Positions 1 through 63,374 of a stretch of DNA of 64,000 nt are shown one piece after another. Under the pieces are notes generated by a model. The model was not told where the DNA came from. It did no database searches and saw nothing but the letters and a program-made list of their open reading frames with translations. The stretch lies in assembly GCF_035084215.1 (NCBI RefSeq), contig NC_090339.1, forward strand, positions 47,988,001-48,052,000, read 5' to 3'. The stretch comes from Heptranchias perlo. Taxonomy: Eukaryota. The position numbers and the translations under genes are program-made. The first letter of the stretch is position 1, and each line of letters starts with the position of its first letter.

Positions 1-1910
1 CATTAAAGGGAATCCAATAGTCTTCTAAAGGCATGTAAATAGTAAACGGGTAGTAAGAGGAGGGGTGGGGCCAATTAGGAACCAAAAAGGAGATCTACGC
101 ACGGAGGCAGAGGGTATGGCTGAGATACTAAATGAGTTCTTTGCATCGGTCTTTACCAAAAATGAAGATGCTGCCAAAGCCACAGTAAAAGAGGAAGTAG
201 TTGAGATACTGGATGGGTTAAAAATTGATAAAGAGGAGGTACTAGAAAGGCTAGCTGTACTTAAAGTAGATAAGTCACCCAGTCCAGATGGGATGCAGCC
301 AAGGTTACTGAGGGAAGGATGGAAATTGTAGAGGTGCTGGCCATAATCTTCCAATTTTCCTTAGATATGGGGGTGGTGCCAGAGAACAGGAGAATTGTAA
401 ATGTTACACCCTTGTTCAAAAAAGGGTGCAAGGATAAACCCGGCAACTACAGGCCAGTCATTTTAATCTCGGTGGTAGAGAAGCTTTTAGAAACGATAAT
501 CTGGGACCAAAATTAATATAGTCACTTGGGCAAGTGTGGATTAATTAAGGAAAGCCAGCACAGATTTGTTAAAGGCAATTCGTGTTTAACTAACTTGATT
601 GAGTTTTTCGAAGAGCTAACAGAGAGGGTTAATGAGGGCAATGCGGTTGATGTGTATATGGACTTTCAAAAGTCTTTTGATAAAGAGTCGTATAATAGGC
701 CTGTCAGCAAAATTGAAGTCCATGGGATAAAAGGGGCAGTAGCAGCATGGATACAGAATTAGGACCATTGCTTTTTTTGATATATATTAATGACTTGGAC
801 TTGGGTGTACAGGGCACAATTTCAAAATTTGCAGATGACACAAAATTGGAAGTGTAGTGAACAGTGAAGAGGATAGTAATAGACTTCAAGAGGATATAGA
901 CAGGCTAGTGGAATGGGCAGACACATGGCAGATGAAATTTAACGCAGAGAAGTGCGAAGTGATACATTTTGGCAGGAAGAATGAGGAGAGGCAATATAAA
1001 CTAAATGGTACAATTCTAAAGGGGGTGCAGGAACAGAGAGACCAGGGGGTATATGTGCACAAATCTTTGACGCTGGCAGGACAGGTTGAGAAAGTGGTTT
1101 AAAAAAAATACCTGATCCTGGACTTTATAAACAAATGTAAGGAGTATGTAACTCTTCACTCACCTGACGAAGGAGCAAAGCTCCGAAAGCTTGTGATTTC
1201 AAATAAAGCTGTTGGACTATAACCTGGTGTTGTGCGACTCCTTACATTTGTCCACCCCAGTCCATCACCGGCATCTCCACATCATTAATAAACAAAGGCA
1301 TAGAGTACAAAAACAAGGAAGTTACAATGAACCTTTATAAAACACTGGTTCGGCCACAACTGGAGTATTGAGTCCAATTCTGGGCAGCAGGCTTTGGGAA
1401 GGATGTGAAGGCCTTAGAGAGGGTGCAGAAAAGATTTACTAGAATGGTTCCAGGGATGGGGGACTTCAGTTATGTAGATAGACTGGAAAAGCTGGGGTTG
1501 TTCTCCTTAGAGCAGAGAAGGTTAAGAGGAGATTTGATGGAAGTGTTCAAAATCATGAAGGGTTTAGATAAAGTAAATAAAGAGAAACTGTTCCCATTGG
1601 CGGAAGGGTCGAGAGCCAGAGGACACAAATTTAAGGTGACTGGCAAAAGAGCCAAAGGCGACATGAGGAAAAACTTTTTTTTAAATGCAGCGAGTAGTTA
1701 TGATCTGGAATGCACTGCCTGAAAGAGTGGTGGAAGCAGGTTTAACCATGGCTTTCAAAAAGGAATTGGATAAATACTTGAAGGGAAAAAATTTGCAGGG
1801 CTATGGAGAAAGAGAGGGGAATGGGACTAACTGGATTGCTCTTACAAACAGCTGGCACAGGCTTGATGGACCAAATGGCCTCCTTCTGTGCTGTAACCAT
1901 TCTATGATTC
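1..1910 (+). mobile_element. CR1 LINE ORF2 (RT) 3' part, degenerate; interrupted by a Penelope LTR fragment
   Basis: ORF fragments KSPSPDG, NYRPV, SCLTNLIEFFE, MDFQK, KFADDTK, MKFNAEKC, LEQRRLRGDL. Frameshifts and an internal deletion near 760. 3' tail ccattctatgattc. Confidence 0.95.
1136..1285 (+). mobile_element. Penelope-like pseudo-LTR fragment with hammerhead motif, inserted in CR1
   Basis: Contains tcac-CTGACGA-a-ggagc-aaa-gctcc-GAAA-gctt-gtga and the tail ...ccggcatctccacatcat. Short inverted piece acaaatgtaaggagt at the left. Flanking duplication ataaacaaa at 1127-1135 and 1288-1296. Confidence 0.85.
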
Positions 1911-5705: not shown

Positions 5706-6019
5706 GTCACCATATCAGGAAGGACAAGTGTGTTGTGCACCAGATAGGCCCAAGCCTGTGCCCCTTGGGCTTGCAGGAGAGAAGATGGGGGCTACACCAG
5801 GAGAAGGAAGGAAGGAAAGAAATAAAGAACCAAAACACGCAGCCAATTTGCACGTAGCAAGGTCCCACAAACAGCAATGAGATGGTGTTGGTGAAGTGGC
5901 AGGATGGGACTTATGCCTGCCCACACAATCCCCCCAGCAGCTACTCACAATGTGGCAGGCCTCACTCCCCCAGCAGACGAGAGTTGCGTTGGGAGTTTTT
6001 AAAAACAGATCATGCTGAT

Positions 6020-7180
6020 AGCTTTCGACAAGGTTCCACATAAAAGACTGTTAACAAAAATGAGAGTGCATGGAATTGGAGGCAAATTATTGGCTTGGAT
6101 AGGGAATTGGTTAGGAAGTAGGAGACAGGGAGTAGGGATAATGGGTATGTACTCAAATTGGCAGGATGTGACTAGTGGTGACCCCTATGAATCTGTACTG
6201 GGGCCACAGCTTTTCACTATATTTATGAATGACTTGGATGAAGGAATAGAAAGCCATATATCGATGTTTGCTAATGACAACAAGTTAGGTGGCACAGTAA
6301 ATAGTGTAGACGGGAGCAGAAGGTTGCAAAGGGACATTAATAGATTAAGTGAGTGGGCAAAACTGTGGCAGATGGAGTTTAATGTGGAAAAGTACATGGT
6401 CATACACTTTGGACCTAAGAAAGATGGATCAGAGTATTTTCTAAATGGTGAGAAGCTAGAAACTGTGCATGAGCAGAGAGATTTAGGGGTCCAAGTATAG
6501 AAATCACTAAAAGCTAGTAGACAGGTACAAAAAATAATTTAAAAGCCTAATGGAATGTTGTCCTTTATCTCAAAAGGGGCTGGAATACAAAGGGGTGGAA
6601 GTTATGTTACAGTTGTACCGAGCTCTGGTTAGACCCCATCTGGAGGACTGCACTCAGTTCTGGGCACTACACTACAGGAAGGATATATTGGCCTTGGAGG
6701 GGGTGTAGCGCAGATTCACCAGAATGATACCAGGGCTGAAAGGGTTAATAAGGACAGGTTGCATATTCTTGGCTTGTATTCCCTTGCGTATAGAAGATTA
6801 AGGAGTGATCTAATTGGGGTGCTTAAGGTGATTAAAGGATTTGATAGGGTACATAGAGAGAAACTATTTCCTCTGGTGGGAGAGTCCAGAACAAAAGGGC
6901 ATAACCTTAAAATCAGAACTAGGCCATTCAGGGGTGATGTCAGAAAGCACTTCTTCACACAAAGAGTAGTGAAAATCGGGAAACTCTCCCCCAAAAAGCT
7001 GAGAATAGATTAATTGAAAATTTCAAGACTGAGATTCATAGATTTTTGTTAGACAAGGGTATTAAGGGATATGGAACCAAGGCTGGTTGATCGAGTTAAG
7101 ATACAGATAAGCCATGATCTAACTGAATGGCGGAACAGGCTCAAATTGCTCAGTGGCCTACTCCTATTCCTATGTTCCTG
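6020..7180 (+). mobile_element. 5'-truncated CR1 LINE
   Basis: AFDKVPHKRL, SVLGPQLFTIF, FANDNKL, RRLRSDL; 3' tail cctattcctatgttcc. Confidence 0.95.
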
Positions 7181-8945: not shown

Positions 8946-9232
8946 CGGGACGCAGTAGCGTCGGCGCTGTGCCTTCTCTGAAAATAACACTTTGCAGAGA
9001 ACTTGAATCACACTGCAGCAAACTGGATCAAATTACACATTCCAGACAAAGGGTTGGGTGAGTATTGTCCTCCCACATCCTGCCAGCGACAATAGCAATT
9101 ATCTTAGTTCCACCACAGTGGTGGCAATAGACGCAACCATAAATTTAAATTCATTATAAAAGAGCATTAGGTGCTTACCTGAAGCAGCCAATGAACACTC
9201 CATATTCTCCATCAACAGTGATTAAAATAATC

Positions 9233-9436
9233 ATGATGTGGAGATGCCGGTGATGGACTGGGGTGGACAAATGTACGGAGTCGTACAACACCAGGTTATA
9301 GTCCAACCGCTTTATTTGAAATCACAAGCTTTCGGAGCTTTGCTCCTTCGTCACCTGACGAAGGAGCAAAGCTCCGAAAGCTTGTGATTTCAAATAAAGC
9401 TGTTGGACTATAACCTGGTGTTGTACGACTCCGTAC
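9233..9436. mobile_element. Fold-back Penelope pseudo-LTR element (copy A1)
   Basis: Arms of about 85 bp around the centre cc (9354-9355). Unpaired 37-nt tail at 9233-9269. 12-bp duplication attaaaataatc at 9221-9232 and 9437-9448. Confidence 0.9.
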
Positions 9437-9747
9437 ATTAAAATAATCCATTTACCATTTGTGGAGATGCCGGTGATGGACTGGGGTTGACAATTGTAAA
9501 CAATTTTACAACACCAAGTTATAGTCCAACAATTTTATTTGAAAATCACAAGCTTTCGGAGGCTTCCTCCTTCCTCAGGTGAATGTCAAGAAATCCTCGC
9601 ACCTTTCGCATTTATAAATCACAGAGCAATACCTGGTGATTACAGATAATCTTTCCAACTGCCCGTTGCCAAGGCAATCAAAGTGTTCAGACAGAGAGGT
9701 GTTACCTACAGGACCACCGAATATACAAACAACCAAAAAAAAAACAG

Positions 9748-11961
9748 GGAGGTCTATCGTCAATTTGTCCGACCACACCCTTCAACCAGACGGAATCGAA
9801 GTTCTCAGCCAAGGGCTCAATTTCTGCCCCACTACCAAAATGGACCCCATTAGTCTCGCAGCGGACACAGAGGAATTCATCAGGAGAATGAGGCTCCGGG
9901 AATTCTTCCACAAACCCCAAGATTTCAGCAGCGAACACAATGAGACAATCAACGATCCGGAACAGCAGACAGAGGGATCCGCGGTACAGCAACCGAAGAG
10001 GAAAGAGTCAAACTGGACTCCTCCGGAGGGTCGCTGCCCTCAGCTTGACATGTATGCTCAAGCTGTCAGGAAATGCGTCAATGCCAGATTCATCAGCCGC
10101 ACTCAGAAGACAGTCCAGAATGTCACCCGAGCACAACGCAACGCCATCAACGCTCTCAAGACCAACCGCAACATCGTCATCAAACCAGCGGACAAAGGAG
10201 GAGCCAGTCATACAGAACAGAACGGACTATTGCAAAGAAGCATACCGAAAACTGGGCAACCAGGAACACTACAGACGGTTACCCGCAGATCCGACCAAAG
10301 AACACACCCACCAGCTCAACAAACTGATCAAGACCTTCCATCCAGACCTTCAAAGCATCCTACGCGCTCTCATCCCACGTACTCCCCGCGTGGGAAACTT
10401 CTACTGCCTCCCAAAGATACACAAAGCCAACACACCCGGACGTCCTATCGTATCAGGCAACGGAACCCTGTGTGAGAACCTCTCTGGATACATCGAGGGC
10501 ATCCTGAAACCCATCGTACAGGGAACCCCCAGCTTCTGTCGCGACACTACAGACTTCCTACAAAAACTCAGTACCCACGGACCAGTTGAACCAGGAACAC
10601 TTCTCACCACGATGGATGTCTCGGCACTCTACACCAGTATCCCCCACGATGACGGCATCGCTGCGATAGCATCAATACTCAACACCAACAACAGCCAATC
10701 TCCAGACGCCATCCTACAACTCATCCGCTTCATCCTGGATCACAATGTCTTCACCTTCGATAACCAGTTCTTTACCCAAACACACGGAACAGCCATGGGG
10801 ACCAAATTAGCACCCCAATACGCCAACATTTTCATGCACAAGTTCGAGCACGACTTCTTCACTGCACAGGACCTCCAACCAACACTATATACCAGATACA
10901 TCGACGACATTTTCTTTCTATGGACCCACGGCGAAGAATCACTAAAGAGACTACACAATAACATCAACAAGTTCCATCCCACCATCAAGCTCACCATGGA
11001 CTACTCCTCAGAATCAGTTTCTTTCTTGGACACACGAATCTCCATCAAAGACGGGCACCTCAGCACCTCACTCTCCCGCAAGCCCACGGACAACCTCACG
11101 ATTCTCCACTTTTTCAGCTTCCACCCTAACCACGTCAAAGAGGCCATCCCCTATGGACAGGCCCTGCGAATACACAGGGTCTGCTCAGACGAGGAGGAAC
11201 GCGATGGACACCTACAGACGCTGAAAGACGCCCTAGTAAGAACGGGATATGATGCTCGACTCATCGATCGACAGTTCCAACAGGCCACAGCGAAAAATCG
11301 CATCGACCTCCTCAGAAGACTAACACGGGACGTAACCAACAGAGTACCCTTCGTCGTCCAGTACTTTCCCGGAGCGGAGAAACTACACCATGTTCTCCGC
11401 AGCCTTCAACATGTCATCAATGAGGACAAACACCTCACTATGGCCATCCCCACACCTCCACTACTCGCCTTTAAACAGCCACCCAACCTCAAACAGACAA
11501 TCGTTCGCAGCAAATTACCCAGCTTTCAGGAGAACAGCATCCACGACACCACACAACCCTGCCACGGTAACCTCTGCAAGACATGCCAGATCATCGACAC
11601 AGATACCACCACCCATCAGGTACATGGTTCATACTCCTGTGACTCGGCCAACGTTGTCTACCTCATACGTTGCAGGAAAGGATGCCCCGAAGCACGGTAC
11701 ATTGGCGAGACCATGCAGACACTGCGACAACGGATGAACGGACACCGCGCAACAATCGCCAGACAGGAGGGTTCCCTCCCAGTCGGGGAACACTTCAGCA
11801 GTCAAGGACATTCAGCCACCGACCTTCGGGTAAGCGTACTCCAAGGCGGCCTTCGAGACACATGACAACGCAAAATCGTCGAGCAGAAATTGATAGCCAA
11901 GTTCCGCACCCATGAGGACGGCCTCAACCGGGATCTTGGGTTCATGTCACGCTACACGTAA
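9748..11961 (+). pseudogene. Penelope-like RT / GIY-YIG endonuclease ORF with one frameshift and one premature stop
   Basis: Motifs IKPADKGGA, FYCLPKIHK, GRPIVS, MDVSALYT, GTAMG, RYIDD, FLD; Cys/His linker CHGNLCKTC..H; VVYLIRC...YIGET..LRQRMNGH. Frameshift near 10207. TGA at 11863-11865, after which QRKIVEQKLI...GLNRD continues. Confidence 0.93.
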
Positions 11962-12222
11962 CCCCACCAGCGAACAAAAGTTATCTGTTTTTAATATAAC
12001 GGGTCATTTGCTGTCTTTCTCTTCCTTCCGGATGTTTCTGCCTCTCTCTCTCGCTCTGTTTTTTTTGGTTGTTTGTATATTTGGTGGTCCTGTAGGTAAC
12101 ACGTCTCTGTCTGAACACTTTGATTGCCTTGGCAACGGGCAGTTGGAAAGATTATCTGTAATCACCAGGTATTGTTCTGTGATTTATAAATGCGAAGGGT
12201 TCGAGGATTTCATTTCCACAAC

Positions 12223-12263
12223 ATTCACCTGAGGAAGGAGGAAGCCTCCGAAAGCTTGTGAAT
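12223..12263 (+). ncRNA. Minimal type I hammerhead ribozyme motif in the Penelope pseudo-LTR
   Basis: attcac (stem I)-CTGAGGA-a-ggagg-aag-cctcc (stem II)-GAAA-gctt-gtgaat (stem I'). Palindromic AGCT in place of stem III. Stem II covaries among copies. Confidence 0.75.
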
Positions 12264-12318
12264 TTCAAATAAAATTGTTGGACTATAACTTGGTGTTGTA
12301 AAATTGTTTAAAATAGTC

Positions 12319-12523
12319 ATGATGTGGAGATGCCCGGTGATGGACTGGGGTGGACAAATGTACGGAGTCGTACAACACCAGGTTATAGTCCAACAGCTTT
12401 ATTTGAAATCACAAGCTTTCGGAGCTTTGCTCCTTTGTCGGGTGACGAAGGAGCAAAGCTCCGAAAGCTTGTGATTTCAAATAAAGCTGTTGGACTATAA
12501 CCTGGTGTTGTACGACTCCGTAC
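12319..12523. mobile_element. Fold-back Penelope pseudo-LTR element (copy A2, duplicate of A1)
   Basis: Near-identical to 9233-9436, including its flanks; the centre reads gg at 12441-12442. Confidence 0.9.
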
Positions 12524-13259
12524 ATTAAAATAATCCATTTACCATTTGGGCAGAGTTACCAATAAGAAAAAATGGTCATCACAGAATAAAAAGGACATTA
12601 AGTACATACGTAGATCGATATATAAAAAAAATTATTTCACTAGCACCAAATTTAGTTTTAAAACCTTTAATAATATGTGATCCATGTAGGTTAATACTGG
12701 GTATGGGGAGAAAACAAAAATATCGGCTTGTAGCACTCTGTGTTTAGAATGGTTTCATCTCTTGGTCCTCAAATAGCATTAATAAGATCTGCAGCATTAC
12801 AACAACAGAGGAACCCTTTTAATGAACATTCAAAAGCCACCATAGTGAGTTGTTTTGTGCTCATTCTACTAATCGTCAAGTGTCACAAGCTTTCATTGTG
12901 GACAAGATGAAATCATTCGCACTGAATGAGAAAACAATGACAGCAATCTGAAGTACAACTGGGGACTTCAGTCATCGCTGTGTTTAAATATTTCAGAGAA
13001 GACTCCATTCAGCTATAAATGGCCATTAATTGGAATGCTTGTAATTCAGAGAGAGACAGTACACTTATTGGGGTTGATTTTAACTTGCTGAAATCGGCAT
13101 TAACAGGATGTTAACCTCAAAAAGACTAAACACAAATAATTTAACCAATGAATAAACAGAACACCACAAACATCCTGCTGCAGTATTACATTTAAACAAG
13201 ATCCATCCAGCTACAACACACTTAAGGCCTTGTATTATAGGGTCTGACATTTAAAAGTT

Positions 13260-15818: not shown

Positions 15819-16872
15819 CTGCCAAAGACAGTTCAACAGAAAGGGATAGTTATTTTTTTTGCCAAGTAACAGAATTTAGTTACAGTAATTAATCAGATAA
15901 ATCAGAAAGGTGTGAATGTGTTTAGTACGCTACATGCTGAGTTTGCTGCATGCAAAGTTTGCGACTGTGATATTTTAATTGCCCTCAGTACTGTAGTTGT
16001 AGTTGAGTAAGCGTTAGTCTTGGCTTGATGCAACCCACCTCTTTCCTGTTAGAATTCTCTTCCTTGTAAAATGATCAGAGTTCACCAGCAAACAGAATGT
16101 TCGGACTTCAGTTGTTATTCTGATTTGGACAAAGCAGCATCAGAATTGGAGGAGTTTAAAGGGTCTTTGTCTTTATAAAAAGACTTTTGCAAACTTCTTT
16201 TTGGTTTTGGTTTTGTTTTTTTTTGGGGGGGGGGTGGGGGGGGGGGGGAAAGCCATATATAATTTCTGCCACAATCTTACTTATGTCAATATACAGAGGG
16301 GGAGAAATTGGACCTGGCCACGTCTGCTTTTTGGATGAGAAATGATCGATTGGGGGACAAATTTCAGGTCGAGCTCTCTCGTGCCCGATCTACCCTGAAG
16401 TGCATCGGGTGCAAAATTGGAAGCCAATTACTTCCAACTGTGCAGGGGGTCCACCTGAAACAGGCATTAGGTGCCTTTAATATGCAAATAGGGGTCCTTA
16501 TGCCCGATTTAAGACCCCCGATCAAAATTCATAAATTGGGTGAAGCTTGTTTCACTTGATCCGGGTCTTCAGTGATTCTTCACCACCCCCCCCGCCCCCA
16601 CCTCACCCCCTCCGTTATTCAATGGCTTCTGGCTTCAAAAGCTCTACTGTCACCTCATTAATTATACTATTATATTGTGCAGCTGCTTAAAGAAGTAGAT
16701 TCCCAATGTTGCCTCATGGCAGTTGTTTTAAGTCTTTCTCTCTGATCACTTTCTCCAATTGCTGATGAAGGTATGTACACGACAGTGAGCAAAGAAAAAG
16801 CACACAGCTGCCCATTGTGGAAGAGCTTAGCCAGAAAACATAGCTGCTTCTGACTCCACCTCCTCTATAGTC

Positions 16873-17088
16873 AACTGTAAACAATTTTACAACACCAAGT
16901 TATAGTCCAGCAATTTTATTTTAAATTCACAAGCTTTCGGAGGCTTCCCCCTTCGTCAGGTGAACGATTCACATCGTTCACCTGACGAAGGGGGAAGCCT
17001 CCGAAAGCTTGTGAATTTAAAATAAAATTGCTGGACTATAACTTGGTGTTGTAAAATTGTTTACAATTGTCAACCCCAGTCCATCACC
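16873..17088. mobile_element. Fold-back Penelope pseudo-LTR element with hammerhead cores on both strands
   Basis: Arms of about 95 bp around the loop tcac (16969-16972). Tail on the right. Duplication tcctctatagtc at 16861-16872 and 17090-17101. Confidence 0.92.
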
Positions 17089-19002: not shown

Positions 19003-20293
19003 ATTCAGGGAGCCATGCTAGTCACTTCAGGGAGATCTGAGAGTCCAACAGAGCATTTTTCAGAGTATCCAACACCCAGAGAAGTCAAGCAAACCCAATG
19101 TATCGGACATGGGTTGTAAAACAATTCTGTAAAATACATCAGGTATCTCTAATCGTGGAGCTTTATGGACTTGGCAAAAAAGAAACTACTCCATGAAAAA
19201 TATACAGCCCTATCAGAGGACAGCTACCAATGGTGATGGGGTTGGAGAAAGCAAGGCCTCTCTCAAAAGGAATTCAATTCACAAACCTGAATTGAAATAG
19301 TTCTAACAGCAATCCCTGGTTAGAACTGCAGCAACACCTCTCCATGTGGCTTAGCAGGGCAAAGCACAGTATAGTGCAGAGCCATACATACGAGAGTAAG
19401 CCGATCTGAGCCAGGGCAGCAGTTATGGTGCGAAAATTGGTCTCACTACCACTGGGCTAGAGGAGGGGGGGGGGGAAATCAGTTCTTAGTCCTGATTGCT
19501 ATCCAGTGATTCCTGAGAAAAAAAGTGCAGGGTGTGTAGATGATAGGTGAGGAAAAGGAAAAGCAATTGAACAGGGAGAGACTGCCCTACAAGTCATTAG
19601 AATTTAGCTTGCCAATAATTGAGAGAAACATTTTAAGGGGTTATTCTTGTTCAACACCTTCTCCTCCCCCAAATCGTACTGTGTCTATATTTGGAGGTTT
19701 TGCTTTCTCCAACCTCATCACCACTGCCACAATCACAGGAATGCTTATGAGTGATGTTGCAAACCTTCGATTGTTGAAGAAACTATGTTGTAGAAGTAGT
19801 ATTTGACATCTATTCATGAACTGTATTTTTTAAGAGAGAACCAGAAGAGAGCCTGCAAGGAATGCTTTTGCACTATTTCATCTGAAGAAGAGGTCATTCA
19901 ATTAACAGTTAGTATAACAGCAGCCCATATGCTATGAAATTTAATTGATTAATTGAGATCTACAGAAACTCTCAGGCCATAGAACAATATAGAGTTCATG
20001 TTACATTATAGGTTATATGGTACTTGCGGATACACACCTTGCCTTGCTTTCTCCAACCCCATCATCATTGCTACTGTCCTCTGATAGAGCTGTATATTTT
20101 TCATGGAGTACTTTCTTTTTGCCAAGTCCATAAAGGTCCACGATTAGAGATACCTGATTTATTTTACAGAGATGTTTTACAACCCATGTCCGATACATTG
20201 GGTTTGCTTGACTTCTCTGGGTGTTGAATACTCTGAAAAATGCTCTGTTGGACTCTCAGATCTCCCTGAAGCTACTAGCATGACTCCCTGAAT
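19003..20293. repeat. ~250-bp inverted repeat (19003-19257 and 20041-20293) with a ~780-bp spacer
   Basis: The arms align as reverse complements along their length, e.g. agagaagtcaagcaaacccaatgtatcggacatgggttgtaaaac versus gttttacaacccatgtccgatacattgggtttgcttgacttctct. Confidence 0.95.
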
Positions 20294-41119: not shown

Positions 41120-42365
41120 AACTTATGAACAGGAGTAGGCCATTCAGCCCCTCTAGCCTGTTCTGCCATTCATTTAGATAATGGCTGATCTGTACCTCAA
41201 GTCTATTTACCTGCATTGTTCCATATCCCTTGATACCCTTACCTAGCAAAGATCTATCTATCTTGGTCTTCCTCGATTTCCACTTCCTTTTGTGTGAAGA
41301 AGTGCTTCCTGATTTCACTCCTGAATGGCTTCGCTCTGATTTTAAGATTATGTCCCCTTGTTCTGGATTTCGTCACAAGAAATAGTTTCTACCTGATCCA
41401 ATCCTTTTACCATTTTAAACAAGTGGATTAGATCACCCCTCCATATTCTAAACAAGAGAATACAAGCCAAGTTTATGCAACCTGTACCCATATTTAACCC
41501 TTTAAGCCCTGATATCATTCTGGTGAATCCACAATGTACCCCCTCCAAGGCCAATATAAGTCTGGTCGGAAGGCAGATATATCTTTCCTGAGGTGTGCCG
41601 CCCATAATTGAATGTAGTACTCGAGATCAGACCTTACCAAGGCTCTGTACAACTGAAGCATAACTTCCTCCCTTTTGTATTCCAGCCTCCTTGAAATAAA
41701 GGCCAACTTCCATTAATTTTTCTGATTGCTTCTTGGACCTGTGTACTAGCTTTGATGATTTGTGTACATGGTCACCCAAATCTCTTTGCTCCTCCACAGT
41801 TCCTAGATTCTCACCATTTGGAAAATACTCTGACTTGTCATTCTCGGATCCAAAGTGGATGACCTCTCATTGAACTCCTATTTGTTATATATTGGATAGG
41901 CAGGTGGTGAAGGATAGAATACTAGAGCCTGGTCTCGAGTTGCTTCTAAGCCTTTATTCACAGAGCTCCACGTTACAGACACACACACACCACACCCTAG
42001 ATAAGCTCTCATATGGATCACAGACCCCCAATTGATACATACCACCTGAATACAATTAACACTAATTGATATAAATCACAGATACAATTAACACTATTTG
42101 CCACAGTTTTGCTCACTCACTTAATCAGTTTATGTCCCTTTTAACTTCCTGCACCTCCCAACTTAGTGTCATCTGCAAACTTCAATATACAACTCTCCAT
42201 TCCTTCATCGAAGTAATTGATAAACAAGGTTGCCTCCAATTCCGTGTGCTTTCATTTTTGCTAATGATCTCTTGTGCGGAATCTTATCAAATGCCTTCTG
42301 GAAATCCATACAGATAACATCCATAGACACTCCCTTATTAACCGTGTTAGTGACCTCCTCAAAAA
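41120..42365 (-). mobile_element. Degenerate CR1 interrupted by a solo LTR
   Basis: [29 protein letters not shown]. Confidence 0.88.
41883..42093 (-). mobile_element. Solo LTR (211 bp, Gypsy-like)
   Basis: TGTTA...TAACA termini, 5-bp TSD ctatt (41878-41882 and 42094-42098), AATAAA on the minus strand. Confidence 0.85.
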
Positions 42366-42742
42366 ACTGGGAAATATAGGACATTTTAAAATCAAGTCAC
42401 AGAGTCAGCTTTTTACCTAGGTATAGTATAGTATTACCATGGTGAAATTATAGCATTATGGTCTGGTTTCAGATCCTGACTATGGGCTCCAATTGAACAA
42501 GCAAGACAGTGAAATGCATCTTCAGGTCTCCACCGTGGCTTATACTGTTGCTTGGTTGAAAGGATGGACGATGTCCTGCTTCCAACCTTCTGCTAGCATG
42601 CTACTTTGTAATAAGCTGCTTACAGTTACATGACAAAAAGCATTGCCTTGCAAGTAGTTTTTTTCTGCCTCCCAACCAGACTAATTATAACTCAACCTGC
42701 AGTTATTCAGACATAAACTCATATCCTACGTTGTTCAATCCA

Positions 42743-45700
42743 ATAAGACCATAAGAGATAGGAGCAGGAGTAGGTTATTCAGTCTCTCAAGCCTGCTCCG
42801 CCATTTAGTGAGATCATGGCTGATCTGATTTTTACCTCAACTCCTCTTCCCACCCTTTCCCCATATCTTTTGACTCCCTTGCTGATGTCTAACTCAGCCT
42901 TGAATATATTCAATGACTCAGCCTCCACAGCTTTTTGGGGTAAAGAATTCCAAAGATTCACGACCCTCTGGGAGAAGAAATTCCTCCTCATTTCCGTCTT
43001 AAACGGGTGACCCCTTATTCTGAGACTATGCCCCCGAGTTTTAGATTCCCCCATGAGGGGGTAACATCCTCTCAGAATCTACCCTATCGAGTCCCCTCAG
43101 AATCTTGTATGTTTCCAGAAGATCTCCTCTCATTCTTCAAAACTCCAATGAGTACAGATTCAACCTGTTCAATCTTTCCTCATAAGACAATCCTTCCATA
43201 CCTGGAATCAACCTAGTGAACCTTCTCTGAACTGCCTCCAATGCAAGTATGTCCTTCCTTAAATAAGGGCACCAGAACTGTATGCAGTACTCCAGCTGTG
43301 GTCTCACCAGCACCCTGTACAGTTGCAGCATGACTTCCCTGCTTTTATACTCCATCCCCCTGGAAGTAAAAGGTCAATATTCCGTTTGCCTTCCGGATTA
43401 CCTGCTGCACCTGTATGTTGACTTTTTGTGTTTCATGAATGAGGACACCCAGATCCCTCTGTACCACAGCATTTTGTAGTATTTCTCCATTCAAATAATA
43501 TTTTGCTTTTTTATTTTTCCTCCCAAAGTGGATGACTTCACTTTTTCCCACATTATATTCCATCTGCCAAATTTTTGCCCATTCACTTAACCTGTCAATA
43601 TTCTTTTGCAGACACTTTGTGTCCTCATCGCAACTTGCTTTTCCACCTATCTTTGTATCATCAGCAAATTTGGCCACAAGACACACTGTTCCTTCATCCA
43701 AGTCATTGATATATATTGTAAATAGTTGAGGCCCCAACACTGAGCCCTGTGGCACCCCACTAGTTACAGATTGCCATTTTGAAAATGACCCTTTTATCCC
43801 GACTCTATGCTTTCTGTTAGTTAGCCAATCCTCTATCCATGCCAGTATATTACCCCCAACATCATGAGCTCTTATCTTGTGCAGTAATCTTATGTGGCAC
43901 CTTATCGAATGCCTTTTGGAAATCCAAATATACTGCATCCATTGGTTCCCCTTTATCCATCCTGCCCGTTAGTTCCTCAAAGAACTCTAATAAATTTGTC
44001 AGACATGATTTCCCCTTCATAAAACCATGTGGACTCTCCTTGATTGTATTGAGTCTCCAAATGTCCTGCTACTACTTCCTTAATGATGGATTCTAGCATT
44101 TTCCCAATGACAGGTGTTAGGCTAACTGGTCTATAGTTACCTGCTTTCTGTCTCACTCCCTTCTTGAATAGGGGTGTTACGTTTGCGGTTTTCCAATCTG
44201 CTGGGACCTTCCCAGAATCTAGTGAATTCTGGAAGATTACAACCAATGCATCCACTATCTCTGTAGCCACTTCCTTTAAGACCCTCGGATGCAAGCCATC
44301 AGGTCCAGGGGACTTGTCAGCCTTTAGACCCATTAGTTTACCTAGTACTTTTTCTCTAGTAATAGTGACTGCTTTTAGTTCCTCCCTCCCCTTTGCCCCT
44401 TGATTTTCTACTATTATTGGTACTATTAGTGTCTTCTACTGTGAAGACATACAAAATATCTGTCCAATTCCTCTGCCATTTCCTCGTTTTCCATTATTAT
44501 TTCCCCAGCCTCATCCTCTAAAGGGACCAATGTTTACTTTGGCTACCTTCCTTTTTATATACTTGTAGAAGCTTTTACTGTCAGTTTTTATATTTCTTGC
44601 TAGTTTACTCTCAATTTATTTTCTCCTTTATTATTCTTTTCGTCATCCTTTGCTGGTTTTTAAAGTTTTCCCAATCTTCAGGCTTACCAGTAATCTTTGC
44701 CATGTTGTATGCTTTTTCTTTTGACCTGATACCATCCTTGACTTCCTTAGTTAGCAATGGTTGGTTCACCCTTTTTGTGGAGTCTTTCCTCCTCAGAGAT
44801 ATTTTTTTTTTTGCGAGTCATAAAATATCTTTTTAAATGTTTGCCACTGCTTATCCACCATCATACCATCTAATCTGTTTACCCAGTCCACTTTAGCCAA
44901 TTCCACCCTCATTCCTTTATAATTTCCCTTATTTAAGTTTAATACAGTAGCTTCAGACCCAAGATCCTCGCTCTCAAACTGGATGCGAAATTCTATCATG
45001 TTATGATCACTGCTTCCCAAGGGATCCTTTACTTTGAGATCATTAATTAATCCTGTTTCATTACCCATTACCAGATCCAAAATGGCCTGTTCCCTGGTTG
45101 GTTCCCCGACGCATTGGTCTAAGAAACAGTCCCTAATACACTCTATGAACTCCTCCCTCAGGGCTATTTTTGCCAATTTGATTTGTCCAATCTATGTGAA
45201 AGTTAAAATCGCCCATGATTATTGCATTACCTTTTTTACAAGCCCCCCTTATTTCCTGATTAATATTTTGCCCTACAGTGTGGTTACTGTTAGGGGGCCT
45301 ATATACTACTCCCACCAGTGATTTCTTTCCCTTGCTATTTCTTACCTCTACCCAAATTGATTCGACATCTTGATCTTATGAGCCAAAATCATCTCACTAT
45401 TGTACCAATTTCATCCTTTATTAACAGAGCTACCCCATCACTTTTACCTTTTTTCCTATCCTTACGGAATGTTAAATAACCCTGAATATTTAGCTCCCAA
45501 CCTGGATCACATTGCAGCCATATCTCTGTAATGGCCACGAGATCATACCCATTTATTTCTATTTGTGCCATCAATTCTACTTTCTTATTACAAAAGCTGC
45601 GCGCACTCAGATAAAGAACCTTTAATTTTGTCTTTTTACCATTCTTTCCTACCCCGGCCTCATTTGCTAGTGCACTCTTATGTTTGTACTCAGTCCCTTC

Positions 45701-46090
45701 CTGACACACTCTGTTTATCATTACCCCCATCACTTTCCTGTACTACTTCCTTGTCTTTTCTCTATCAATTTAAACTTCGCCCTACCTGAGCCCTCCCCCC
45801 CGCCCCCCCGCTAACTGCTTAGATTAAAGCCTTCCCTACCGCCCTAGTTATTCGGTTTGCCAGAACACTGGTCCCAGCATGGTTCAGGTGAAGCCCGTCC
45901 CAACAAAACAGCTCCCTCTTTCCCCAGTACTGGTGCCAGTGCCCCGTGAATCGAAACTCACTTCTCCCACACCAATCTTTGAGCCACACATTCATCTCTC
46001 TGATCTGATTTACTCTGTGCCAATTTGCTTGTGGCTCAGGTAATAATCCGGAGATTATCACCTTTGTGGTTCTGCTTTTTAATTTAGTCC
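42743..46090 (-). mobile_element. Long CR1 LINE: 3' end of the esterase-type ORF1 plus APE-RT ORF2, frameshifted
   Basis: WHQYWG..FCWDGLHLN (ORF1); YDLVAITEIW, GVVYRPP, MGDFN, SDHN (APE); PQGSVLGP, KFADDTK (RT). Confidence 0.96.
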
Positions 46091-46255
46091 AACAGGAATA
46101 TCCACACAGTATTAGTTAAGTTATCTAACTCCGGTAGTTGAATTTCAAAAGAGAAAAAAGATTTGCTGTATAAAAAGATTGATTATCATTAGTTTAGCAC
46201 ACTCCCCACAATCAAATAGCCGTGCCAACACTCACTGTCTGGACTCACACAAGAA

Positions 46256-47612
46256 TGGTGGGTAAAATTTTGGAGTCTATTATTAAGGAGACAGTAGCGG
46301 AACATTTGGATAAACATAATTTAATAGGACAAAGTCAGTATGGCTTTATGAAGGGGAAGTCATGTCTGACAAATTTGCTCGAGTTCTTTGAGGACATAAC
46401 GTACAGGGTGGATAAAGGGGAACCAGTGGACGTAGTGTATTTAGACTTCCAGAAGGCATTCGACAAGGTTATTGCTCAAGATAAAGAATCACTGGATTGG
46501 GGGTAATATTCTGGCATGGGTGGAGGATTGGTTATCTAACAGGAAGCAGAGAGTTGGGATAAATGGTTCATTCTCGGACTGGCAACCAGTAGCCAGTGGT
46601 GTTCCGCAGGGGTCGGTGCTGGGTCCCCAACTCTTTACAATCTATGTTAACGATTTGGAGGAGGGGACCGAGTGTAACATATCAAAGTTTGCAGATGATA
46701 CAAAGATGGGAGGGAAAGTAGAGAGTGAGAAGGACATAAAAAACCTACAGGGGGATATAGACAGGCTGAGTGAGTGGGCGGAGATTTGGCAGATGCAATA
46801 CAATATTGGAAAATGTGAGGTTATGCACTTTGGCAGGAAAAATCAGAGAGCAAGTTATTATCTTAATGGCAAGAAACTGGAAAGTACTGCAGTACAAAGG
46901 GATCTGGGGGTCCTAGTGCAAGAAAATCAAAAAGTTAGTATGCAGGTGCAGCAGGTGATCAAGAAGGCCAACGGAATGTTGCCGTTTATTGCTAGGGGGA
47001 TAGAGTATAAAAACAGGGAGGTATTGCTGCAGTTATACAAGGTATTGGTGAGACCGCACCTGGAATACTGCATACAGTTTTCGTGTCCATACTTAAGAAA
47101 AGACATACTTGCTCTCAAGGCAGTACAAAGAAGGTTCACTCGGTTAATCCCGGGTATGGGGGGGTTGAGTGGATTTGGACTCTACTCATTGGAGTTCAGA
47201 AGAATGAGAGGCGATCTTATTGAAACATATAAGATTGTGAAGGGGCTTAATCGGGTGGATGCGGTAAGGATGTTCCCAAGGATGGGTGAAACTAGAACTA
47301 GGGGGCATAATCTTAGAATAAGGGGCTGCTCTTTCAAAACTGAGATGAGGAGAAACTTCTTCACTCAGAGGGTAGTAGGTCTGTGGAATTTGCTGCCCCA
47401 GGAAGCTACATCATTAAATAAATTTAAAACAGAAATAGACAGTTTCCTAGAAGTAAAGGGAATTATGGGTTACGGGGAGCGGGCAGGAAATTGGACATGA
47501 ATTTAGATTTGAGGTTAGGATCAGATCAGCCATGATCTTATTGAATGGCGGAGCAGGCTCAAGAGGCCGATTGGCCTACTCCTGCTCCTATTTCTTATGT
47601 TCTTATGTTCTT
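46256..47612 (+). mobile_element. Young 5'-truncated CR1 inserted in an old SINE
   Basis: 342-aa open RT segment; tail cttatgttcttatgttctt; aatg on both sides. Confidence 0.96.
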
Positions 47613-50145: not shown

Positions 50146-50191
50146 AATTAATGTCAAGTGGTTTGTTTCACAATTCCCACTCAGCGTGCAC

Positions 50192-52020
50192 ACATAGGAA
50201 CAGGAGTAGGCCATTCAGCCCCTCGAGCCTGTTCTGCCATTTAATGAGATCATGGCTGATCTGTATCCTAACTCTACCCACCCATCTTTGCTCCATATCC
50301 TTTAATACCCTTGGCTAGCAAAAATCTATCTATCTCAGATTTAAAATTACTAATTGAACTAGCATCTACTGCTTTTTGTGGGAGAGAGTTCCACACTTCT
50401 ACCACCCTTTGTGTGAAGAATTGTTTCCTAACTTCTCTCATGAGTGGCCTAGTTCTGATTTTACGTCTCCTTTCCTAAACTCCCCCACCAGCAGAAAAAG
50501 TTTCTCTCTATCTACCCTATCAATTCCTTTCAAAATCCTAAAAACCTCAATTGAAATCACCCCTTAACCTTCTGTATTCCAGGGAATACCAGCCTAATTT
50601 ATGTAATCTCTCAATTTAGCCCTTGGAGCCCTGGTAACATTCTGATGAATCTGCACTGCATTCCTTCCAAGGCCAATATATCCTTTCTAATGTGCAGTGC
50701 CCAGAACTAGAGTACTCCAGATGTGGTCTAACCAGGGCTTGTATAGCTGCAGCAAAACTTCCTCCCCTTTATATTCTAGCCCTCTAAATATAAAAGCTAA
50801 CATTCCATTAGCCTTTTTGATTATTTTTTGTACCTGACTACTAATTTTAGTGATCTGTGTACATGGACCCCTAAATCTCTTTGGATCTCTACTGTTCCGA
50901 GCTTTTTACCATTTAAAAAATATCCTTTTTTGGTCTAAAATGGATGACCTCACACTTACCAGCGTTGAAATCCATCTGCCACAGTTTTGCCCACTCAATT
51001 AATCTATCACTGTCTCTTGATAATTTTATGCCCCCATGTACACTATTTACTATGACACCAATCTTTGTGTCATCGGCAAACTTGGATATATGGCTCTCTA
51101 TTGTATTATCTAAGTCAATACTAAATATAGGCCCCAGCACAGATCCTTATGGGACACCACCAGTCACTTCCTTCCAATTTGAGTACATACCCATTATCCC
51201 TACACTCTGTCTTCTACCACCTAACCAATCCCCTAACCAGGTAAATAGTTTGCCTTCAATTCAATGAGCTTTAATTTTAGAGAGAGAGTGCAAAAGAGAT
51301 TTACTAGAATGATTCCAGGGATGAGGAACTTTAGTTATGTGGATAGACTGGAGAAGCTCTCCTTGGAACAGAGAAGGTTGAGAGGAGATTTGATAGAGGT
51401 ATTCAAAATCATGAAGGGTCTAGACAGAGTAGATAGAAAGAAACTGTTCCCATTGGCAGAAGGGTCAAGAACCAGAGGACATAGATTTAAGGTGATTAGC
51501 AAACGAACCCAAGGCGACAAGAAAAACTTTTTTTTTTAAAAACACAGCGAGTGGTTAGGATCTGGAATGCACTGCCTGAGGGGGTGGTGGAGGCAGATTC
51601 AATCATGGCCTTCAAAAGGGAGCTGGATAAGTACTTGAAAGGAAAAAAATTGCAGGGCTACAGGGATAGGGCAGGGGAATGGGACTAGCTGGATTGCTCT
51701 TGCATAGAGCCGCCACAGACTCGATGAGCCAAATGGCCTCCTTCCATGCTGCAACCTTTTCGAATGCCTTCTGGAAGTCCATATAAACTACATCCACAGA
51801 CATTCCCTTGTCTACTACTTTAGTTGCTTCCTCAAAAACTGAATTAGATTCGTTAGACATGACCTATCCGTTACAAATCCATGTTGGCTCTCTCAAATCA
51901 GCTCAAATTTCTCCAAGTGCTCAGTCATCCTGTCCTCAATTATAGATTCCAATAACTTCCCCACAACAGATGTTAAACTCACAGGTTTATAATTTCCTGG
52001 TTTCTCTCTCTCTCTCACTT
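50192..52020 (-). mobile_element. CR1 (minus) with a younger plus-strand CR1 3' fragment nested at about 51280-51757
   Basis: Outer copy reads KFADDTK and MDFQKAF; inner copy reads ERVQKRFTRM...RRLRGDL. Confidence 0.92.
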
Positions 52021-53419
52021 TTTTTTTTAAAAAAAGGTGCCAAACTCCTGACCTTCTCCCTGATGTGTGCACCCACCTGTCAAATCCCCTACCAAGTGTA
52101 CCCTCCTGTCAAAGCCACAACTCCCCTTCCCCTCATAGGGCACAACTGTTTGGCAATGACCCTCCACCCCCCCAACTCCCAAAGTGGTCACAGCCTCCTG
52201 CCAAACCCCCAAGCAGTAACACTCTGCTACTAAACCTAGAACCCCTTTCCCACTGGGCACACCTGACTGCCACCCGCTCCCCCTCACTGGATGCTGCATC
52301 CTGCCAAACCCCAAACCCTTCTTGACTGGATGCACCCTCCTGCCAACTCTTCCCGCAGTTTATGATCCTCTTTTGTAAATACCTTTCCTCCTGCCTTTGC
52401 GTCTCCCCACAATACATGCCATTCCTTCAAATTGAAAAGGATAAGCATGTGATATGTTGCAAACTCAAGGGCTTTCCCAATCCAATCTGTAACTGGCTAT
52501 TCTGAAGTGCCCTAGAGCAAGCCAATCCTGTGATTTTTCCCTCCCTCTATTTTTTTTTAAACAGAAACCAAGGAGGAATTTTAGCCACCACCCCCACCCA
52601 CCATGACCTGCAACCTGCCAGGAACGCACCTACTTCTGTTTTAACTGCGGCAGGTTTGGGGGCAGCTGAGTAACCCGCTCTGGAGAGGCTGGTCAGTCAT
52701 TATAATTTGTTAATGAGGCTCAGTTCCTGAGATTTTGGCAGCCATTTGAATTTAACGCTGGCCAGCCAGGTTTCCCAGGGCTCGGGAAACCCAGCAGCTA
52801 AAGGGAAGCGGGATCAGCCGGATCCAGCAGGTAAGTGCTGTTCAGAATACTGCCAGGAGAAGCAGGAGTGCTTTTCCCCCCCGACACCTCAAGCAAACTT
52901 TCTGCCGCGATCAACCAACACCACCCCCCCACCCACCCCCCAACTGCCCTTCAAGCCCGCGATCCTGAGCCTGATCCCCCTCCCTCCCGAATGTTGGTCT
53001 AATTCCCCCCCCCCCCCCCGCAATCTCTCCCAGACCCCAGACCCCCTTCCTCCAGACTGCAGCTCCAACACCCCCCCACCCAGACAAGGTGCGATCTCTC
53101 CCGGTCCCACCTCCCTCCCGGTTGCCAGGGATCGTCCCCAACAGTCCCCGGCTGCTGCCTTCTACCGCTGGATTTCCCACCAAACGGAGTAAAAATATGA
53201 CAATGAGGTCCTACCGTTAAACTCGGCATGACGCCCGCCTTCCCAAGTCTCCCCCTCGCAAACACGCGCCCCCGCTCCCTCCCCGCCTCCCTGTAAATAT
53301 CGGGGCCAATATCTCTGCTTATAGTCACTCCCCATTCGTACAGCAACAATAACTCAGTGGTGCAAAATTATCTCTATCTAATCTTTGTTCTGAAACATTT
53401 CACAGGTATTCAAATAGTC

Positions 53420-54050: not shown

Positions 54051-54419
54051 TATATGTACACATATGCAGTGTGTACTATCTACAGAATGCGCAGCGGCAA
54101 TTAGTCAAGGCTTGTTCGACAGCGCCTCCCGAACTAGTGACCTCCACTACCTAGAAGGACAAGTGCTGCAGGTCAAAATCCTGGAACTCCCTACCTATCA
54201 GCACCAGTGGCAGTACCTTCACCACACGGACTACAGCGGGTCAAGGCGGCCGCTCACCACCACCTTCTCAAGGGCAACTAGGGATGGGCAATAAATGCTG
54301 GCCTTATTCAAGTGCACTGCTCTGTCCTGGATAGTGTTGAGATTTGAGAGTTTGTTGTGGCTATACCCATCCAGGCAAGTGGTGAACATTCCATCACATT
54401 CCTGACTTGAGCCTTGGAA

Positions 54420-61235: not shown

Positions 61236-61904
61236 CCATGATGTGGAGATGCCGGTGATGGACTGGGGTTGACAATTGTAAACAATTCTACAACACCAAG
61301 TTATAGTCCAGCAATTTTATTTTAAATTCACAAGCTTTCGGAGGCTTCCTCCTTCCTCAGGTGAACGAAATGAAATCCTCGAAATGAAATCGCATTTATA
61401 ATTCACAGAACAATGCTTGGTGATTACAGACAGTTTTTTCAACTGCCCGTTGCCAAGGCAATCAGTGTGCAGACAGACAGGTGTTACAGAAATTGATAGC
61501 CAAGTTCTGCACCCATGAGGACGGCCTCAACCGGGATCTTGGGTTCATGTCACGCTACACGTTACACGTTACCCCACCAGCGAACAAATGTTATCTGTTT
61601 TTAATATAACGGGTCAGTTGCTGTCTTTTCTATGTTTCTACCTCTCTATCTGTTTTTTTTTGTTTGTTGTTTTTTTTTGGTGATTTGTATATTCTGAGAC
61701 CTTGCAGGTAACACCTTTCTGTCTGCACACTGATTGCCTTGGCAATGGGCAGTTGAAAAAACTGTCTGTAATCACCAAGCATTGTTCTGTGAATTATAAA
61801 TGCGATTTCATTTCGTTCACTTGAGGAAGGAGGAAGCCTCCGAAAGCTTGTGAATTTAAAATAAAATTGCTGGACTATAACTTGGTGTTGTAAAATTGTT
61901 TACA
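61236..61904 (+). mobile_element. Severely 5'-truncated Penelope-like element with inverted pseudo-LTRs and hammerheads on both strands
   Basis: Inverted arms of about 200 bp flank the last codons of the ORF (KLIAKFCTHEDGLNRDLGF) and the 3' UTR. Duplication attaaacggtat at 61224-61235 and 61905-61916. Confidence 0.93.
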
Positions 61905-63374
61905 ATTAAACGGTATAGTAGCATAGTGGTTATGAGAAAGGAAAACTCACTTTAATAATTAAAAGGCATTGGAAATGAAAAAAAACAGCAGACACCATAA
62001 ATAAATCATATTTAATAATGTATGTTCTAAGTTATGTCAATTACAATGAAATATGTGGACAAATACCAGAGCAGGGAGAACAAACACTCAGATTCCCCAT
62101 TGGCTAGATTGTTCATAACTGCATGCCTATTGTTTTTGTTTAAAATGGGGGAGAAATGAATGAGCATAACACTACACTGATGTTTCGTTCATATCTGGTA
62201 CTATATGGTAAGTGTACGTCTTCTCTACGTGTGTGTTGTAAACTGGATATGCCCAGATATTTTAACAGCTCTCCTGATATCTGGTTTCCCCTTCATCCTA
62301 CACACCACTCACACTGTGCATCATTAACTGCAATTGAGTTCCCAGTTTTACCTGGCCACATGACCATATTAACTGTAGTTTGGGGACCTTGGCTCAATTT
62401 TTTGACATCAGAGATTCAAGACCAAACTAAGCGTTTTTTGTGAAGAGATGGATATTTAATTTCTTCAAATGAAAAAGCTTCAAAATATCACATTTTGTGT
62501 TGGCTTCTTTATTTAGGATTTGAAGTAAAATATTACCAACACTTTTAAATCTACCGAAGTTCCATACTGTTCCTTTTAGTGAGGGCCATTGCCTCTCCAT
62601 AGGCAGTGGGAGAGAAAACTAAGTAAAATAAATCTCCTGGGACTTTGCCATGATTATATTATAATGACATTTATGCCACATTACAAAAAAATATTTTTTG
62701 GGGGAAGGGGGCGAGGCAAGGGAGGTCAGTCTCTAGTTAATTTCTTTGTATTGACCCTGATGAACATAAGTGCAAATAGAACTATTCTCATTCATATGGA
62801 CCAACACCATTACTTTTTCAAACTCTGCCTCTAGGCAGTCATCCACAGAAAGACTGGCACAGTGCACACTTTGCAAACCCAATACACATCCATAACTACA
62901 CTGTGTGGTGTGATGCTGAGGCATACAGACCAGGAAGATATGAGCTATGAACCCTAGTCAGTGCTGAATTAGCTTACCTGAGCTGGCACACTAATGTAGG
63001 CCCTGCAGTTGGCCTCAGTGTCAACGAACTAGAAAGAAAAAAGGGGCAAAAATGGCTTGGGTTTCCATTCCTAATTGCTATGGAGGTGCTCTGCGGTAAA
63101 ATGTGCATGTGCGTGTAAGGTTAGGGTTCAGTTTGGCTATGATGAATAGTCCAACACTCGCTCGAGGTATCCAGGCAGAATACCAGTGGGTTACCAATGT
63201 TCATTTAACTTACCCCAGTAGGAGTCACTGCCTACAGAAAAGTAGGAGATGGGGAAGAAGATCAAAGATAAAATTAGATTGAGGGAAAAATTATACATTT
63301 ACCTTGCGTTTCTCTCTCTACAGATGCCACCTGACCTGCTAAGTGTTTCCAGCATTTTCTGTTTTATTTCAATT

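Follow-up and report, generated by a model that had tools for sequence, protein, structure and literature searches.

A hairpin at the short insertion end of a putative Neptune-type Penelope-like element from a shark

A 16-nt hairpin is a real feature of the pseudo-LTR of a Penelope-like element in the 64-kb stretch of shark DNA analysed here (hereafter the window), and it marks the short end of all six independent insertions of this element that the window holds. We label the element Neptune-type from a linker motif and from its vertebrate relatives. The preliminary description had centred on covariation in the stem, which proved weaker than claimed; the asymmetry of the insertion ends, with microhomology at the short end and a fixed position at the long end, is the more interesting result. 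The reading that we prefer, and to which we give about an even chance, is that the hairpin helps to position and expose a priming patch without a strict lock-and-key role, and that the short end arises by positioned annealing.

The element and its insertions

The window consists of repeat-rich animal DNA. Many decayed RT-like fragments of another repeat family lie at 5957-7176, 41120-47608 and 50189-56700, which we take by eye to be CR1-type LINEs. A near-perfect tandem array with a 27-bp unit, as judged from a 9-residue repeat in translation, occupies 23633-24197 with several frames open, and a 255-bp inverted repeat pair (19003-19257 and 20041-20293, 94.5% identity) possibly represents the ends of a non-autonomous DNA transposon.

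The Penelope-like ORF (9752..11961, + strand) is 5'-truncated and broken by one frameshift and one internal stop. It encodes a reverse transcriptase (RT), a C-x4-C-x2-C linker and a GIY-YIG-type endonuclease, so that RT and, at the C-terminus, a GIY-YIG stand in one ORF, as in endonuclease-bearing (EN+) Penelope-like elements. The RT domain matches RVT_1 in Pfam (E=7e-11). Pfam made no GIY-YIG call on the window protein, as searched up to the internal stop; the C-terminus read from the sequence (VYLI..C..C..YIGET) has a GIY-YIG-type core with two internal cysteines, and the GIY-YIG domain PF01541 is present in relatives of the protein. CRKGC lies between the two core endonuclease motifs and is followed by NGHR and GEHF, again as in EN+ elements. 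The nearest relatives are shark proteins (identity up to 91%), followed by those of turtle, amphibian and invertebrate. The linker reads CHGNLCKTC and fits the CX2-5CxxC motif of the RT-EN linker, which, in the available text of Craig 2021 (PMC8557442), marks Neptune/Nematis and is absent from Penelope/Poseidon. On these definitions, the element is assigned by sequence to the EN+ Penelope-like elements of Neptune/Nematis type and not to Penelope/Poseidon.

Self-comparison and motif search of the window located 14 pseudo-LTR arms, which belong to six independent insertions (I1-I6) and a second copy of I2. Every insertion has two arms placed head to head between target duplications of 9, 12, ~240, 17, 11 and 12 bp (I1 to I6), two of which begin with ATT and one with TTA. 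The EN+ Penelope-like combination of inverted pseudo-LTRs, a tail at one end and a target duplication is thus found in 6/6 insertions. In RNA sense, an arm is ordered as a minimal hammerhead, AATAAA, a near-invariant 17-mer and the 16-nt hairpin; a tail of at most 41 nt follows in the long arms only. End positions are counted below from the last base of the hairpin as 0.

Insertion I1 (1131..1285, haplotype D, 9-bp target duplication) lies within a copy of another repeat and consists of a long arm at 1157-1285 (+), with a mismatched hairpin at 1231-1246, and a short arm of ~16 nt at 1131-1146 (-). I2 (9233..9439, 12-bp duplication) is a head-to-head palindrome of subfamily B, with the long arm at 9233-9353 (-), the short arm at 9351-9439 (+) and hairpins at 9272-9287 and 9422-9437. 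I3 carries the ORF between an inverted pseudo-LTR at 9460..9751 (-), whose long end has a tail to +35 and whose hairpin, of type A, is at 9495-9510, and a downstream pseudo-LTR at 12040..12310 (+), which ends short (-5..-2); there the subfamily A hairpin (12297..12310, +; nominally 12297-12312) has 2 nt cut off by the junction. I4 (16872..17088, subfamily A, 17-bp duplication core) has a short arm (-) and a long arm (+) reaching +23, with hairpins at 16876-16891 and 17050-17065. I5 (32431..32589, subfamily C, 11-bp duplication) has a long arm (-) to +34, a short arm (+) ending at +4..+6 and hairpins at 32465-32480 and 32568-32583. I6 (61237..61907, subfamily A, 12-bp duplication) has a long arm (-) to +41 and a short arm (+) that ends at 0..+3 and includes the last codons of the ORF, with hairpins at 61277-61292 and 61889-61904.

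A direct duplication of ~240 bp (9222-9461 and 12308-12548) flanks the ORF-bearing I3 and encloses the whole palindromic I2, and the second copy of I2 (12319..12526), which lies within it, was not counted as independent. The duplication looks like an unusually long target duplication, which the older palindrome I2 perhaps promoted. The palindromes are centred at 32521-32524 in I5, at the centre of the hammerhead AAGCTT; at 9351-9356 in I2, at stem I; and at 16967-16968 in I4, ~10 nt upstream of the hammerhead. The three positions lie within the hammerhead or a short way 5' of it, so that cDNA synthesis may be terminated by the folded ribozyme or by its cleavage. The idea that one arm was made by snap-back copying from its partner was rejected for I3 and I6, whose two arms each contain sequence missing from the other.

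The hammerhead is a minimal type-I-like motif at 12223..12263 (+), with stem I, core, stem II and a palindromic core without helix III, and cleavage is predicted after 12257. A minimal hammerhead is expected in a Penelope-like pseudo-LTR; here it is a predicted ribozyme, called because core and stems match the description in the text available from PMC4209133 and because stem II has one double change. Rfam gave nothing at gathering score in the whole window and nothing at E<=5 in 12150-12320. The AATAAA hexamer (12268..12273, +), between hammerhead and hairpin, is followed by a GU-rich run, is invariant in 6/6 long arms and is a possible polyadenylation signal. In two protein records of bamboo-shark type, P0044 and P0124 (see below), an F-to-I change fits an ATTAAA variant, depending on codon choice, and this compatibility hints at a working signal. 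The UCACC of hammerhead stem I recurs in the tail, and RNAalifold pairs the tail copy with the 3' strand of the ribozyme (alignment A1, columns 40-47 with 117-124), a possible off-switch of the ribozyme that would be in line with the protein-assisted cleavage in Poseidon-Ac.

The hairpin and its variants

The four 16-mers quoted in the preliminary description are exact at 9422-9437, 17050-17065, 61889-61904 and 32568-32583, and its spacing of about 40 nt downstream of the hammerhead agrees with a hairpin that starts 39 nt after the predicted cleavage site. The hairpin that it placed at 12286-12310 is not complete there, because the junction falls inside it and target DNA replaces the last two bases. 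The three haplotypes that it distinguished, A, B and C, are borne out, but a fourth, D (1231-1246), was present in the same window and went unlisted. The full 16-mer occurs in 12 of the 14 arms; ten copies pair throughout, a private G·U occurs in another (61277-61292), and the last, that of D, combines a G·U with a C·U mismatch. The 3' arm of the D hairpin is identical in both I1 arms, its 5' arm being seen once, and that side was therefore probably inherited from the parent element.

Predicted stability differs widely between the haplotypes, at -5.6 kcal/mol for B, -4.0 for C, -1.6 for A, which is the ORF-bearing subfamily, and +0.3 for D. The hairpin is dominant in its context only in B (pair probability 0.97-1.0). 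In subfamily A a shifted register competes with it: two arms give a pair probability of 0.15-0.49, and the one carrying the private G gives 0. In A and C the hairpin is more strongly favoured by DNA than by RNA parameters (0.5 and 0.9).

The covariation had been called triple, which overstates it. Two of the six pairs (5-12 and 6-11) do change on both sides, once each along the haplotypes A-C-B; three is the number of haplotypes and not of covarying pairs. When as many substitutions as observed were simulated, without counting a base private to a B arm, at least two double changes in a kept hairpin of at least 6 bp arose in 0.02% of 20,000 runs when substitutions were placed at random, in 0.05% with shuffling within the hairpin, and in 19% when positions were fixed and only the letters drawn. 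The pattern of double changes is beyond chance for independent substitutions (P 2-5e-4), yet it comes from two events. These two compensatory events could also stem from template-switch mutation, which, according to the part of PMC8794818 that was available, can create or fix paired stem changes in one step. The hairpin holds 6/16 variable columns, against 5/68 outside it (Fisher P=0.005), and is thus the most variable part of a region whose tail and 5' flank are nearly invariant. The RNAalifold consensus picks the 6-bp hairpin.

Outside the window, four public protein records are translations of the antisense pseudo-LTR. They come from antisense-frame protein searches that gave two, four and one matches, two of the four being unrelated and dropped. 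In this frame the first two codon positions fix pairs 2-15, 3-14, 5-12 and 6-11, provided that the stretch from the conserved TTPGY block to the hairpin is free of indels; beyond it in the 3' direction, P0044 and P0122 are shorter by one base. All 256 back-translations of P0044, a Chiloscyllium gene model, and of P0124, which has the same residues, place U·U at 5-12 and G·U at 6-11, with a best-case energy of -1.8 kcal/mol in this register. P0122 has two loop bases changed and is still compatible with the C stem, and P0121 (Heptranchias) resembles C apart from one G·U. Pairing at 2-15 and 3-14 is possible in 4/4 records, and 6-11 is formed or compatible, G·U included, in all four. In the wider alignment, pairing is kept in A, B and C and compatible in two of the four outside records, but pair 5-12 is broken in D and in the other two. 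A loss of covariation in a larger alignment, which the preliminary description had named as speaking against its claim, is thus partly what we see, in the form of U·U and G·U at the covarying pairs in the bamboo-shark family (two records). Judged from these sequences, the hairpin appears to be a stem-loop that tolerates pyrimidine mismatches at 5-12 and not a strictly covarying helix.

Two of these records deserve separate mention. Residues 14-40 of P0121 place an antisense C-type pseudo-LTR fragment in a Heptranchias LZIC gene model, a possible exonisation or model error; the similarity breaks off ~2-5 nt beyond the hairpin, which would fit another short end. P0124 is a 61-residue protein labelled Proteus mirabilis, from a 297-bp contig, and translates a shark repeat, which is probably contamination.

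Contigs from 4 of 22 listed sequencing runs (24,476 contigs in the main run) were aligned to one arm; this reference has a private base in the hairpin, 11 nt from its end, B- and C-type contigs are clipped at the hairpin, and no phased variants were obtained. Within this comparison, no letter change of at least 2% was seen in the outer four pairs, and C-type letters occurred in 46 contigs clipped at the hairpin. Two other organisms each gave a single hairpin-covering contig, identical to type A, and a third gave no hairpin coverage. In five single contigs 37-88 nt of the pseudo-LTR are missing (window 61256-61347), and four of these contigs lack most or all of the hairpin but keep part of the tail; the five may be rare deletions or alignment artefacts. 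An exact-pattern scan for the hairpin gave one match in metagenome contigs and none in viral contigs; two matches in genome contigs had unrelated flanks and were set aside as chance. Protein-based locus scans of sequence collections for the element found nothing.

The tail (61237..61276, - strand, ~40 nt) is nearly invariant between subfamilies, ends in ATG and is the predicted 3' strand of a longer stem-loop. Folding of five long arms gives, in every one, an expected 9-13 pairs between -40..-16 and +7..+27 and leaves the final 10 nt of the tail (+30 onward) largely unpaired. Folding thus predicts that the hairpin is the tolerant tip of a larger rod, from about -40 to +27, with the long end just past the rod base. 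The rod remains a prediction because its registers differ between subfamilies, the outer helix chosen by RNAalifold never varies and thus shows no double changes, and z-scores are only -0.5 to -2.2. The predicted unpaired bases agree with the microhomology bases of the short ends for I2 and I3; for I1 and I5 the agreement is partial, and I6 shows none. A pseudoknot between the tail and the UGGUG strand was poorly supported, in a weak test, as the folding model excludes pseudoknots. A candidate outer helix of UGYUGG with CCGGCA (alignment A1, columns 62-67 with 120-125) is altered on one side in two cases without loss of pairing: a U·G becomes C-G in I4/I6, and a U·G becomes U-A in P0044, as implied by a tryptophan codon (residues 82-90). 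The ATG at the tail end (61237-61240, -; +38..+41) has A at -3 and G at +4, a strong start context, coincides with the long-end peak at +39 described below and may be the start of the ORF; the sequence that would follow it lies outside the window.

Insertion ends and models of priming

The closeness of the short end to the 3' base of the hairpin, as reported in the preliminary description, is confirmed in 6/6 independent insertions. The short ends of I1 to I6 fall at 0..+5, -1..+2, -5..-2, -2..0, +4..+6 and 0..+3, all within -5..+6 (uniform expectation 4e-6), and the long ends at +39, +40, +35, +23, +34 and +41. A short end is thus combined with a long one in every insertion (P=0.016 for ends independent at 50:50), in agreement with the available text of PMC8557442, where the tail is described as often confined to one end. 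Among the 12 of 156 loose contig ends listed, the best-supported long end is +39 (61238), with 95 contigs and diverse flanks (flank agreement 0.36). The short end is not among the six main-run loose ends listed (12 of 156 overall), where the reference has its private base within the hairpin.

The short ends share 5, 3, 3, 2, 2 and 3 nt with their targets in I1 to I6, where ~0.7-1.1 nt per junction is expected (P(sum>=18) between 3e-5 and 3e-3 when match rates of 0.25-0.35 are assumed), and the long ends share 0-1 nt in the scripted register; by eye, and allowing a 1-nt indel in both cases, I3 has 2 nt and I4 has 4 nt at its atypical +23 end. This asymmetry is known from six insertions. Since every short end carries 2-5 nt of microhomology, annealing helps to set the junction. 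Microhomology alone does not place the short end, because a choice among equally matching sites in the 96-nt element would put all six within -5..+6 with P=0.0035. Because the matching bases run as far as +6, which is tail sequence, the template included the tail, and it was on this template that the short end was selected. No poly(A) was found at any short end of the six insertions, the A-runs there belonging to the target duplications. The microhomology could reflect end-joining instead of priming.

We propose the following series of steps for positioned annealing. By analogy with Poseidon-Ac, the element protein would bind the tail-closed stem-loop on uncleaved RNA and would nick both strands of an AT-rich target. 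One nicked 3' end would anneal by 2-5 nt at the 3' side of the hairpin and start the reverse transcription that yields the short end, a step in which the microhomology is observed and the priming presumed. The other nick would prime close to +39, beyond the foot of the stem-loop and with scant homology, and would give the tailed end; here it is the position that is observed. The two cDNAs would then be joined head to head. Internal initiation in a stem-loop is plausible here because it has been shown in vitro for Poseidon. The sequence itself shows the head-to-head arms, the target duplications, the pairing of one short with one long end, the short-end microhomology, the two compensatory changes and the tolerated pyrimidine mismatches at 5-12. 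In favour of positioned annealing count the place and microhomology of the short ends, the loose-end peak at +39, the combination of one short with one long end, the pairs expected in the five folded arms, the two double changes, the pairs that can form in the outside records and the behaviour of Poseidon-Ac. Against it stand the larger stem-loop, which lacks double-change support, the unpaired bases that miss the microhomology of I6, and the Poseidon-Ac start, reported as non-homologous to the cut DNA in the available text of PMC11167929, unlike the short ends here. A more specific version, to which we give less than an even chance, is that Penelope-like elements integrate by two different primings on one folded RNA, one homology-independent past the rod base (at the putative ATG) and the other annealing-dependent at the apical hairpin. 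If true, such a module would make the one-tailed head-to-head insertion an obligate product and would explain the long-unexplained single tail across Penelope-like clades.

The preliminary description had gone further and proposed that the 6-bp hairpin is itself recognised by the RT/endonuclease and fixes the internal start. That it marks the short end in 6/6 insertions stands; its role as a recognised determinant is weakened, and we consider it unlikely. The coincidence of short ends and hairpin, the two compensatory pairs (P as above), the choice of this hairpin by RNAalifold and the initiation of Poseidon-Ac in a small stem loop (PMC11167929, text as available) all speak for recognition. 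Haplotype D, however, integrated with a normal short end (0..+5) despite its C·U mismatch and positive folding energy, and in the bamboo-shark family every back-translation puts U·U and G·U at the covarying pairs. The hairpin is moreover the most variable segment beside a nearly invariant tail, is weak and in competition in subfamily A, and the junctions spread over 12 nt and follow the microhomology that every short end carries. A similarly low probability attaches to the proposal that the protein reads the invariant tail and flank and starts at a set distance, the hairpin being incidental and its pairing maintained by template switching in a quasi-palindrome, with the scatter of junctions arising from microhomology with an A/U-rich patch. 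The contrast between invariant tail and 5' flank and variable hairpin favours this, as does D, which differs from B by two bases, lacks the 5-12 pair and would be a substrate for such a correction; template switching fixes stems in one step (PMC8794818), and in the accessible text of PMC11167929 the D. virilis endonuclease depended on the tail, and Poseidon-Ac requires RNA as far as +172, past the start region. Yet the loops are not inverted between haplotypes, each branch also having a loop change, and the outer pairs can form in all outside records, with 6-11 always pairable, which suggests some constraint at the RNA level.

We give still less weight to a role apart from priming, in which the hairpin would mask the polyadenylation site in tailed upstream pseudo-LTRs, allowing read-through into the ORF, or would serve as a DNA hairpin for resolution by the GIY-YIG endonuclease. 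The AATAAA and its downstream GU-rich run do lie on the 5' strand of the predicted stem-loop, and the residue change in the two bamboo-shark-type records is, depending on the codon, compatible with ATTAAA; the preference of DNA over RNA parameters in A and C would suit a DNA hairpin. According to the texts available, bacterial GIY-YIG Ssn nucleases cut single-stranded DNA beside hairpins (PMC11893778) and Craig 2021 ascribes the tail to endonuclease resolution (PMC8557442). Set against this, the short ends carry no poly(A), the tolerated G·U and U·U are easier to reconcile with RNA than with DNA, and Poseidon-Ac tails map to RT start sites (PMC11167929, available text). Positioned annealing at a tolerant stem-loop remains the reading that we prefer.

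Comparison with known systems

The closest experimental parallel is Poseidon-Ac of Anolis carolinensis (Frangieh et al. 2024, PMC11167929), which, in the portions of the paper available, initiates RT internally in vitro at an AC-rich stem loop. Two initiation sites, one of them at +111-118, bound a 30-40 nt tail, AT-rich DNA is cut on both strands, and hammerhead cleavage is not needed. Like the shark element, it has a hammerhead upstream, two ends that lie a 30-40 nt tail apart, a start in a stem-loop and AT-rich targets, and the shark hairpin occupies the corresponding position, coinciding with a tail-bounding end in 6/6 insertions. The two differ in that the Poseidon-Ac start is reportedly not homologous to the cut DNA, whereas the shark short ends, situated at the foot of the hairpin or on its 3' arm, have 2-5 nt of microhomology in 6/6 insertions. 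The shark long ends are largely homology-free. Poseidon-Ac also belongs to a different clade, the shark ORF having the linker cysteine motif that is absent from Penelope/Poseidon, and the available text of that paper contains no covariation analysis. Internal priming in a stem-loop is thus already published for Poseidon (PMC11167929, as available), and the shark hairpin alone is a modest addition.

Canonical EN+ insertions, as described in the available texts of PMC8557442 and PMC3846280, have inverted pseudo-LTRs and a tail that is often at one end only, and they share with the shark element the head-to-head arms, the palindromic junction, the one-end tail of 30-40 nt and the short target duplications, compared with which the ~240-bp duplication around I3 is unusually long. 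Within those texts the descriptions include no short-end hairpin or microhomology. The minimal hammerheads of metazoan Penelope-like elements (Cervera and de la Pena 2014, PMC4209133, available text) resemble that of the shark in the type-I core without helix III, the palindromic centre, the extra base before stem II and a stem II that covaries between families; that work covers the ribozyme only, and the downstream hairpin of the shark is a separate element. Our search found no publication that describes a hairpin with covariation, or microhomology at the short end, for pseudo-LTRs of Neptune type, and PMC2377424 has no passage on tail, hairpin or polyadenylation; the subscription papers (Pyatkov 2004, Arkhipova 2006), Repbase/Dfam or figures and supplements may hold one.

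On how inverted, one-tailed Penelope-like insertions are made, the literature that we found offers one reconstituted element, a Poseidon. The shark family offers natural stem variants that bear on this, namely A, B, C, the mismatched D and the U·U bamboo-shark type. A further parallel is L1 twin priming together with microhomology-assisted target-primed reverse transcription, where two nicks, two primings and short base-pairing between target and RNA give rise to an inverted segment. The shark element differs from it in that no poly(A) priming is involved and both arms copy the same pseudo-LTR region.
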